From assembly GCA_039589275.1 (NCBI GenBank), contig JBDHHP010000070.1, positions 1-19,328 on the forward strand: a stretch of DNA of 19,328 nt, given 5' to 3'. Each line of letters opens with the position of its first letter. Position 1 is the first letter of the stretch. The notes beneath the pieces were generated by a model. That model had not been told where the DNA came from, searched no databases, and saw nothing but the letters and a program-made list of their open reading frames with translations. Source of the DNA: Gemmatimonadota bacterium (GTDB lineage: Bacteria > Gemmatimonadota > Gemmatimonadetes > Gemmatimonadales > GWC2-71-9). Positions 8,892 to 9,254 of this stretch are shown here, in pieces. Position numbers and translations under genes: made by a program.

Positions 8892-9254
8892 CTACCTCCT
8901 GTCGCGCACCGTGGCTTCAAATCCTGTCATCCTCTCCAGTTCAGCAATGAACTGATCCGGCGTCGTCGCAGTCGAATCGAATGTCACCACCGCCTGTCCC
9001 GTCTCGTACGAAACGTCCGCACTCTCGACTCCATCAACTCGTCGTAGGGCCACACGGGCCGCTGCGGCACAGCCAGTTCACGTCATCCCGGTAACCAGGA
9101 GCGTCACGCTAGCGTAAGCCTCGGCTGCCATTTCCATGCTCATTGCGGACCCGTCGTCGTGTCCGGCCATGGCATCGTGATCGTGTCGCAGAAGTTGTGA
9201 CCCGACACCCACACCTATGACGGCTACGACGGCAACCCATTCGACTGTCTTCAT
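8892..9254 (-). CDS. merP: MerP-like periplasmic heavy-metal-associated (HMA) protein with an in-frame TGA at the first Cys of GMTCxxC; selenocysteine candidate or pseudogene
   Basis: My own translation gives MKTVEWVAVVAVIGVGVGSQLLRHDHDAMAGHDDGSAMSMEMAAEAYASVTLLVTGMT-TGA-TGCAAAARVALRRVDGVESADVSYETGQAVVTFDSTATTPDQFIAELERMTGFEATVRDRR. The TGA occupies 9078-9080. The frame is intact for 120 codons. AAGGAA Shine-Dalgarno upstream, and the stop lies 9 nt before merB. Both halves fall below the ORF-track length cut-off. Confidence 0.7.

Follow-up and report, generated by a model that had tools for sequence, protein, structure and literature searches.

A stretch of 19,328 nucleotides from a Gemmatimonadota bacterium (contig JBDHHP010000070.1, referred to here as the window) carries a merR-headed mercury-resistance operon on its minus strand, and within this operon, at positions 8892 to 9254, lies a frame that is interrupted by a single TGA codon. 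Comparison of this frame with related sequences indicates that it is very probably a single intact gene whose product is a MerP-like heavy-metal-binding protein with a membrane anchor and with selenocysteine (Sec) as the first ligand of the GMTCxxC metal-binding motif. The proposed gene and its parts are as follows.

8892 to 9254, minus strand: complete MerP-like selenoprotein gene (proposed), 120 sense codons with the UGA counted as Sec59, ending in a TAG stop
9261 to 9266, minus strand: Shine-Dalgarno-like AAGGAA, read directly from the sequence, 6 nt before the ATG at 9254
9189 to 9239, minus strand: N-terminal hydrophobic segment, residues 6-22 (WVAVVAVIGVGVGSQLL), a putative signal-anchor or signal peptide
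9114 to 9188, minus strand: His/Asp/Met-rich linker (RHDHDAMAGHDDGSAMSMEM...) with a juxtamembrane HDH motif that is kept in most orthologues
8916 to 9104, minus strand: heavy-metal-associated (HMA) domain, residues 51-113, matching PF00403 at model positions 1-62 of 62 and spanning the TGA
9078 to 9080, minus strand: in-frame TGA, the proposed Sec codon (residue 59) and first ligand of the metal-binding motif GMT-U-T-G-C
9069 to 9071, minus strand: TGT codon for Cys62, by HMA alignment the second metal ligand of UxxC, TGY in 18 of 18 orthologues

Translation of the minus-strand frame from 9254 to 8892 gave MKTVEWVAVVAVIGVGVGSQLLRHDHDAMAGHDDGSAMSMEMAAEAYASVTLLVTGMT-[TGA]-TGCAAAARVALRRVDGVESADVSYETGQAVVTFDSTATTPDQFIAELERMTGFEATVRDRR-stop, with the TGA at 9080 to 9078 as the sole internal stop in the reading ...VTLLVTGMT-[TGA]-TGCAAAARV.... 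A sequence-only reading of the window had described just such a 120-codon frame in the gap between merT and merB, and translation confirmed it. The same reading had reported an HMA protein with an intact Shine-Dalgarno sequence and intact spacing to both neighbors, and these details also held: the AAGGAA lies as listed above, the gene begins 17 nt past the merT stop and ends 9 nt ahead of the merB ATG, and when U was read as C the protein scored 55.4 bits against the Pfam HMA model (cut-off, 24.8), which was covered in full. Open reading frame (ORF) callers divide the frame into a 58-amino-acid (aa) piece (9078-9254) and a 53-aa piece (8892-9053), which accounts for the apparent gap between merT (9272-9613) and merB (8220-8882); the 58-aa N-terminal piece carries the database label "hypothetical protein." Orthologues keep the pattern W..A....G.G...Q[IL] in the N-terminal segment. 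The protein is predicted to be membrane anchored and to lie in the periplasm, where the His/Asp/Met-rich linker and its HDH motif may aid metal capture.

Orthologues were collected from the DNA of database hits and from scans of genome and metagenome collections (JGI, ENA, NCBI, and Logan metagenome assemblies), giving 25 loci that represent 18 distinct DNA sequences. Five of them are Gemmatimonadota or Gemmatimonadales metagenome-assembled genomes (MAGs), including the complete chromosome OZ252244.1. The gene is likewise present in the assemblies JBDHHA01, JBDHEI01, DASWIX01, and CAUZAE01. All 18 distinct sequences had TGA at the identical column, in the form G-M-T-[TGA]-x-x-C, at 47-100% amino acid identity to the window. 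UxxC is the motif in each of them, and the GMT before the TGA and the xxC after it were co-conserved throughout. Separate assemblies of two JGI samples (L001 and L002) yielded the same TGA-bearing sequence. In the protein databases, matches to the joined protein were fragments without exception, covering either an N-terminal or a C-terminal piece: the N-terminal fragments terminate in ...(I/V)TGMT, and the C-terminal ones open at the first GTG or ATG past the stop (VNCAVAARV, MGCAAAARV, MALRRV). Fragments of this kind typically arise when gene callers cut a selenoprotein gene in two. One further match, L012, was set aside as an unrelated cytosolic CopZ-like Cys protein rather than an orthologue.

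The sequence-only reading had left undecided whether the frame encodes a seleno-MerP or is a recent pseudogene made by a TGC-to-TGA nonsense mutation. Over the 55 codons past the TGA, synonymous divergence (dS) from the window was about 0.6-2.5 and the ratio of nonsynonymous to synonymous divergence (dN/dS) was 0.08-0.30, with a median dN/dS of 0.22 over all pairs. These values indicate that the stretch is translated and under purifying selection, and purifying selection acts on both sides of the TGA. A single base change does turn TGC into TGA, and the sequences come from metagenome assemblies only, as a nonsense mutation or a sequencing or assembly error would allow. Against this stand the occurrence of the TGA in 18 distinct sequences produced by separate projects and assemblers, the depth of synonymous divergence with low dN/dS downstream, and the spread of the 25 loci (47-82% identity), which are not copies of one contaminating sequence; nor would the downstream half of a pseudogene remain the best-conserved part of the protein. 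These comparisons exclude both a recent nonsense mutation and an assembly error as the source of the TGA, and we regard the probability of either as next to negligible. The shared TGA, the dN/dS values, the Cys-containing homologues, and the constraint on a downstream hairpin together favor the seleno-MerP.

The Cys-containing homologues were found in a full HMMER run with the C-terminal 61 aa as the query. Many full-length, single-domain homologues at 50-58% identity bear GMTC(G/A/S)xC (P0026-P0149). Among them, P0046 and P0127 also share the N-terminal anchor pattern of the Sec form, and P0046 adjoins merT and merR. In the DNA of two Cys forms (L027 and L028), the Sec column is occupied by TGC. 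The column at which the sequence-only reading had suggested looking for TGA or Cys in orthologues therefore has TGA in 18 of 18 orthologues and Cys in the homologues at 50-58% identity. At four Sec-form loci (L009, L013, L015, and L016), the downstream merA encodes an N-terminal HMA domain of its own, with ordinary TGC or TGT codons. Sec/Cys pairing is the basis of selenoprotein searches (method, PMC13188914), and by this alignment the in-frame UGA forms a Sec/Cys pair with the Cys of its homologues.

If the TGA were instead a true stop, the gene would yield a 58-aa membrane-anchored His/Met-rich peptide, together with either a separate C-terminal fragment begun at an internal GTG or ATG or none at all. 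Consistent with this, GTG, taken as a start by gene callers, directly follows the TGA in 8 of 18 orthologues, and the N-terminal part bears its own conserved HDH motif. In the window, however, the next codon is ACT, and the first possible start, the GTG at 9053, would give 53 aa without either metal ligand or beta-strand 1. The HMA model runs unbroken across the TGA, with GMT and xxC co-conserved on its two sides, and no Shine-Dalgarno sequence can be conserved within the invariant GGNATGACN block. We consider termination at this codon very improbable. TGA does serve as the ordinary stop of neighboring genes (merT, merB, a DF-family-like gene, and a corrinoid-protein-associated methyltransferase [CpaM] gene), which shows that the genetic code is not reassigned, as the sequence-only reading had also held.

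The sequence downstream of the TGA, in which Sec decoding would call for an RNA signal, contains the following feature.

9045 to 9064, minus strand: candidate bacterial selenocysteine insertion sequence (SECIS) hairpin, with a lower stem pairing 9062-9064 with 9045-9047, a bulged C at 9061, a core pairing GGCC at 9057-9060 with GGCC at 9048-9051, and the loop CGUGU at 9052-9056, which begins 21 nt past the UGA

With the U of the UGA numbered +1, the core pairs are G21-C33, G22-Y32, C23-G31, and C24-G30, closed by the loop C25 G26 K27 G28 U29 and flanked by the bulge C20 and up to three more pairs (19-34, 18-35, and 17-36). The alignment of the 18 orthologues is gap-free between -12 and +78 relative to the TGA, and all of them contain the invariant block CGGCCCGKGUGGYC at +20 to +33. 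Third-position entropy was 0 only at codons +6 (NCG), +7 (GCC), +9 (GUG), and +10 (GYC); Arg+8 was CGU or CGG only, and codon +5 always ended in a purine. All other conserved fourfold-degenerate codons of the 60-codon block (Gly-3, Gly16, Val17, Ala20, Ser23, Val31, Thr38, Pro40, Ala45, Leu47, Arg49, Gly52, and Ala55) varied among two to four synonyms each. The rough combinatorial chance of four zero-entropy degenerate columns falling within one 5-codon window of ~57 columns is ~7e-4. RNAalifold retained the invariant 4-bp core alone. In the 7-bp hairpin, 91% of cells were paired, compared with 30-62% when the partner strand was slid, and the G19-C34 pair changes to A-U in three sequences.

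We compared this hairpin with the criteria given for bacterial SECIS (bSECIS) elements (PMC13188914, Fig. 2 legend): a loop of 3-9 nt whose first two positions include a G with G or U after it, an upper stem of at least 4 bp, a distance to the UGA of 16-37 nt, and an energy of -7.5 kcal/mol or lower. With its 5-nt loop CG[U]GU, GGCC/GGCC stem, spacing of 21 nt, and energy of -12.1 kcal/mol (core enforced), the hairpin fits these values. The unconstrained minimum-energy fold already includes the core in 12 of 18 sequences, and the motif occurs once in the window, where none is expected by chance. Rfam gave no window match at the gathering threshold; a permissive Rfam scan of 8980-9100 returned only a snoRNA match, which is meaningless. 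The sequence-only reading had proposed a different element, an 8-bp hairpin rich in G-U pairs. That pairing is present in the window (GGCUGUGC at +7 to +14 with GUGUGGCC at +26 to +33, four G-U pairs, and an 11-nt loop), but it is not conserved: as a conserved element it was rejected, being 77% paired, with two outer pairs broken in 10 of 18 and 6 of 18 orthologues. It is not the minimum-free-energy fold, and its 3' arm is common to the conserved GGCC/CGKGU/GGYC stem-loop.

Several results weigh against Sec decoding at this codon. Covariation in the hairpin, which the sequence-only reading had named as a check, was not significant in the 18 sequences, as 84-161 of 500 shuffled trials equaled the observed values; the evidence for an RNA element is therefore the invariance of its synonymous sites. 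In the lower stem, the outer pairs 17-36 and 19-34 are broken in 5-6 of 18 sequences, and the window itself forms only two of the three pairs. The 64 nt past the UGA fold no better than shuffled sequence (z = 0.15), which makes fold energy unusable as evidence in such GC-rich coding sequence. In addition, the Cys-form orthologue P0046 (L028 6001-6378, plus strand, on a 737-kb contig) has the GGCC...GGCC core at the same codons (ACG GCC CGT TTG GCC, loop CGUUU), so that part of the stem could follow from T-A-R-(V/L)-A in GC-rich codons. No such core is present in L027, the second Cys form. With these two control sequences, the L028 core could be a fossil SECIS left after Sec-to-Cys conversion or mere codon usage. 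ARAGORN found no tRNA-Sec in the window and 23 loci. A tblastn search with E. coli SelA, SelB, and SelD gave no match in ~298 kb of window-related sequence, a null result that is uninformative because success was improbable from the outset. Finally, we found no literature report of Sec use in Gemmatimonadota or Gemmatimonadetes.

When the collected orthologue loci were scanned for further in-frame TGAs, a second family was detected.

L008 2247 to 3623, plus strand: class-I flavoprotein disulfide reductase with an in-frame TGA; also at L029 9821-11197 and at L030/L031 9842-11218

At L008 (MAG JBDHEI01), the reductase gene follows the Sec form of the MerP-like gene, in the slot occupied by merA in relatives. 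Its product scored 418 bits against PRK06370.1-4 and 411 bits against MerA and lipoamide dehydrogenase, and it lacks both the NmerA domain and the C-terminal CC. In the redox motif CxxxxC, the TGA takes the place of the first Cys (GGT-[TGA]-VNEGCVPTK). Among the best 120 homologues (67-100% identity), all were N-terminally short gene calls that start just past the TGA codon, with lengths of 395-421 aa, nearly all 395-415. The same TGA was present in the DNA of the three other loci, after a 42-aa flavin adenine dinucleotide (FAD)-binding N terminus; L029 is an NCBI "Gemmatimonadetes bacterium" assembly, and L030 and L031 are unclassified metagenome contigs. We did not find this reductase family in the selenoprotein table of a 2026 review, and it may be an unrecognized, widespread selenoprotein. 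Since conserved TGAs stand at a catalytic or ligand Cys in two unrelated families, Sec decoding in the carrier lineage is the best explanation, and the reductase TGA family likewise suggests that this lineage decodes Sec.

UGA59 might also be recoded otherwise, by a near-cognate tRNA (Trp, Cys, or Arg) or by a SelB-delivered tRNASec-like tRNA that inserts Cys, with the hairpin acting as the recoding signal. SelB-dependent insertion of Cys occurs in some bacteria. A conserved TGA followed by a hairpin would suit any hairpin-dependent recoding, and Sec machinery was not found in the ~298 kb searched, which leaves room for such a mechanism. However, the UGA replaces a metal-ligand Cys just as in selenoproteins, the hairpin fits the bSECIS model, and among curated families the nearest is one of selenoproteins. 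If Cys were the residue inserted, a plain TGC would do, and TGC is what the more distant homologues use. We therefore judge recoding to a residue other than Sec to be unlikely.

The following neighbors form an operon with the MerP-like gene.

9914 to 10372, minus strand: merR regulator at the head of the operon, TIGR02051 at 141.5 bits (cut-off, 150.85), with Pfam MerR domains
9610 to 9900, minus strand: gene between merR and merT for a 96-aa DF-family-like protein in the Cys form GCPN, NF049942 "DF family (seleno)protein" at 46.9 bits, below the cut-off of 70
9272 to 9613, minus strand: merT, directly upstream in the same operon, PF02411 at 72.3 bits, with a TGA stop
8220 to 8882, minus strand: merB (organomercurial lyase), directly downstream, PF03243 at 101 bits and PRK13239 at 178.7 bits, with a TGA stop

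All five genes lie on one strand in the order merR, DF-like gene, merT, MerP-like gene, and merB. The MerP-like gene thus adjoins merT in a merR-headed operon, with merB downstream in the window and merA directly downstream in relatives; tblastn found no merA in the window. At most related loci, a canonical merA comes right after the Sec form (L009, L011, L015, and L025), with the NmerA GMTCxxC, GGTCVNVGC, and the C-terminal CC, and its Cys codons are all TGC or TGT. A 96-aa gene at the DF-like position was also seen at L003-L005 and L021, and L008 has a 96-aa ORF at the matching place. In some assemblies, the DF-like gene shows a frameshift-like split (71 + 37 aa), and another such split involves the merT end and the MerP N terminus (L006 2706-3031; L003 5857-6329); these are probably assembly or strain variants unrelated to the TGA.

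From this arrangement, a route for Hg(II) can be proposed. When the ribosome reaches UGA59, the mRNA hairpin 14-33 nt downstream (+17 to +36) would recruit SelB·GTP·Sec-tRNASec, and Sec would be inserted in place of termination. The mature protein would consist of the N-terminal anchor, the His/Asp/Met-rich linker, and the HMA domain. The HMA domain would capture Hg(II) between the Sec59 selenolate and the Cys62 thiolate and, through ligand exchange, transfer it to the paired Cys residues of MerT, from which it would enter the MerB route in the window or the MerA route in relatives. The dependence of decoding on SelB, Hg as the substrate, and a gain in affinity or kinetics from selenium are inferred. 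Compared with a thiolate, a selenolate is the stronger nucleophile and has the lower pKa; on this chemistry, tighter Hg binding and faster exchange through selenium are both plausible.

A broader reading, to which we give an even chance, is that this is the first well-supported selenoprotein of true mercury-resistance operons. It would comprise a Sec-containing MerP encoded with merR, merT, and merA or merB on island-like Gemmatimonadota elements and read through a lineage-specific, nearly invariant mini-SECIS, and at least one genome would pair it with a flavoprotein reductase that bears Sec and fills the merA position. Such a set would make up a pathway of selenium-assisted Hg(II) capture and hand-off that current annotation has missed altogether.

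Other genes surround the operon. Directly upstream, at 10566-12956 on the minus strand, the window encodes an HgcAB-like corrinoid/ferredoxin fusion (NF043039, 388 bits) that bears a GINVWCAAGGG cap-helix-like motif, the CpaM methyltransferase (NF043040, 279 bits), and a TetR regulator. This region is possibly a metal(loid)-methylation module beside the organomercurial lyase operon. Positions 13098-19328 hold a GIY-YIG-like ORF, a helix-turn-helix (HTH) repressor, a DUF3987 protein, and a tyrosine recombinase, and at the L003-L007 loci a tRNA-Pro(GGG) and a phage-type integrase lie beside merR (near positions 1000-3700 in L003, L005, and L007). The mer cluster therefore appears to reside on integrative elements; a Sec-dependent gene on a mobile island would require a Sec-competent host. 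Two large tandem Ser/Thr protein kinases of 771 and 994 aa with TPR-rich C-terminal regions flank the mer region at 1912-7481 on the plus strand, and similar kinases were seen near the related loci L028 and L030. The G+C content of the window is 60%. No other convincing in-frame TGA candidate was found in the window.

Because the database matches are all fragments, either unnamed or labeled "hypothetical protein" or "copper chaperone CopZ," the family escapes notice in surveys of selenoproteomes and of mercury resistance. A Sec-x-x-Cys Hg site beside MerT would be a natural model for Hg-Se chemistry in a detoxification pathway. If the proposal is true, it links selenium supply to the mercury resistance of a phylum that is abundant in soil and sediment. 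Together with the conserved-TGA reductase, the gene suggests wider Sec use in Gemmatimonadota than is recorded. The finding corrects database annotation and bears on Hg-Se biology; the principle was known before.

The idea of a Sec-containing HMA protein is less new than the sequence-only reading had implied, as such proteins are already catalogued. The top NCBIfam match of the MerP-like protein is NF041115, "UxxU_metal_bind" metal-binding (seleno)protein (80.6 bits, 7e-23, residues 48-116), although the cut-off of 95 was missed. NF041115 is listed as a selenoprotein family (PMC13188914, PMC9312934), and the reviews describe it as a "putative mercuric reductase" with UxxU, first found in an Olavius symbiont metagenome. 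The two share a stand-alone HMA fold with Sec in the GMTCxxC site. NF041115 has two Sec residues (UxxU), whereas the MerP-like protein has UxxC, an N-terminal anchor, and a His/Met-rich linker and, unlike NF041115, belongs to a merR-merT-merP-merA/B operon of Gemmatimonadota.

Sec has also been recorded in other metal-transport proteins. Cation-transporting P-type ATPase selenoproteins, listed in review tables with ABB15669.1 as an example, show the same UxxC swap in an N-terminal HMA domain, but there the HMA is part of a large ATPase rather than a small anchored mer-operon protein. MerT-family selenoproteins (CU or C/SxxU) and the MerT/CopZ fusion-like NF045683 likewise place Sec in parts of mercury or heavy-metal transport systems. 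NF045683 matched the window MerT (55.3 bits) and the MerP-like protein (37.9 bits) weakly (cut-off, 375); it is a fused polypeptide, whereas the window has separate genes and a MerT with CC rather than CU. Both the UxxC P-type ATPases and the MerT-family selenoproteins are listed in reviews (PMC13188914, PMC9312934; preprint 10.1101/2022.07.06.499078). Behind the "MerP" entry among the GOS selenoproteins (PMC2398784 Dataset S1) stand two read fragments of 33 aa, identical in sequence (HHARTSAPAGTUCQSGVQAVPATDQAHGDVNEC); since these are unlike HMA, the literature precedent for a Sec-containing MerP is weak.

In its candidate RNA signal, the gene shares with the bSECIS consensus (bSECISearch model) a coding-sequence hairpin just 3' of the UGA, a small loop with G and then G/U, a short G/C upper stem, and a one-base bulge. 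It differs from the consensus in that the core is only 4 bp, is nearly invariant across the clade, and shows no significant covariation; SelB binding is predicted. The hairpin also resembles the minimal element of the E. coli fdhF type.

Among characterized proteins, MerP itself (TIGR02052; PDB 1afi and 1osd) shares the HMA fold, the position of the GMTCxxC loop, and a gene directly after merT, and it is presumed to hand Hg(II) to MerT, as proposed here for the MerP-like protein. The closest solved single-domain structures are in fact those of MerP (1osd and 1afi, with E values of 1.5e-11 and 2e-10). MerP has two Cys ligands, a cleaved signal peptide, and no His/Met-rich linker, whereas the MerP-like gene has UGA at the first Cys, and its product scored 54.3 bits against TIGR02052, below the cut-off of 92.55. 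Because the cut-offs of NF041115, TIGR02052, and NF045683 were all missed and the motif is UxxC, we did not file the protein in any of these families. Sec in an HMA metal site was already known, and what appears to be new is the complete mer-operon context. By these comparisons, the MerP-like protein is a separate clade, predicted to work both like MerP and like an HMA selenoprotein.

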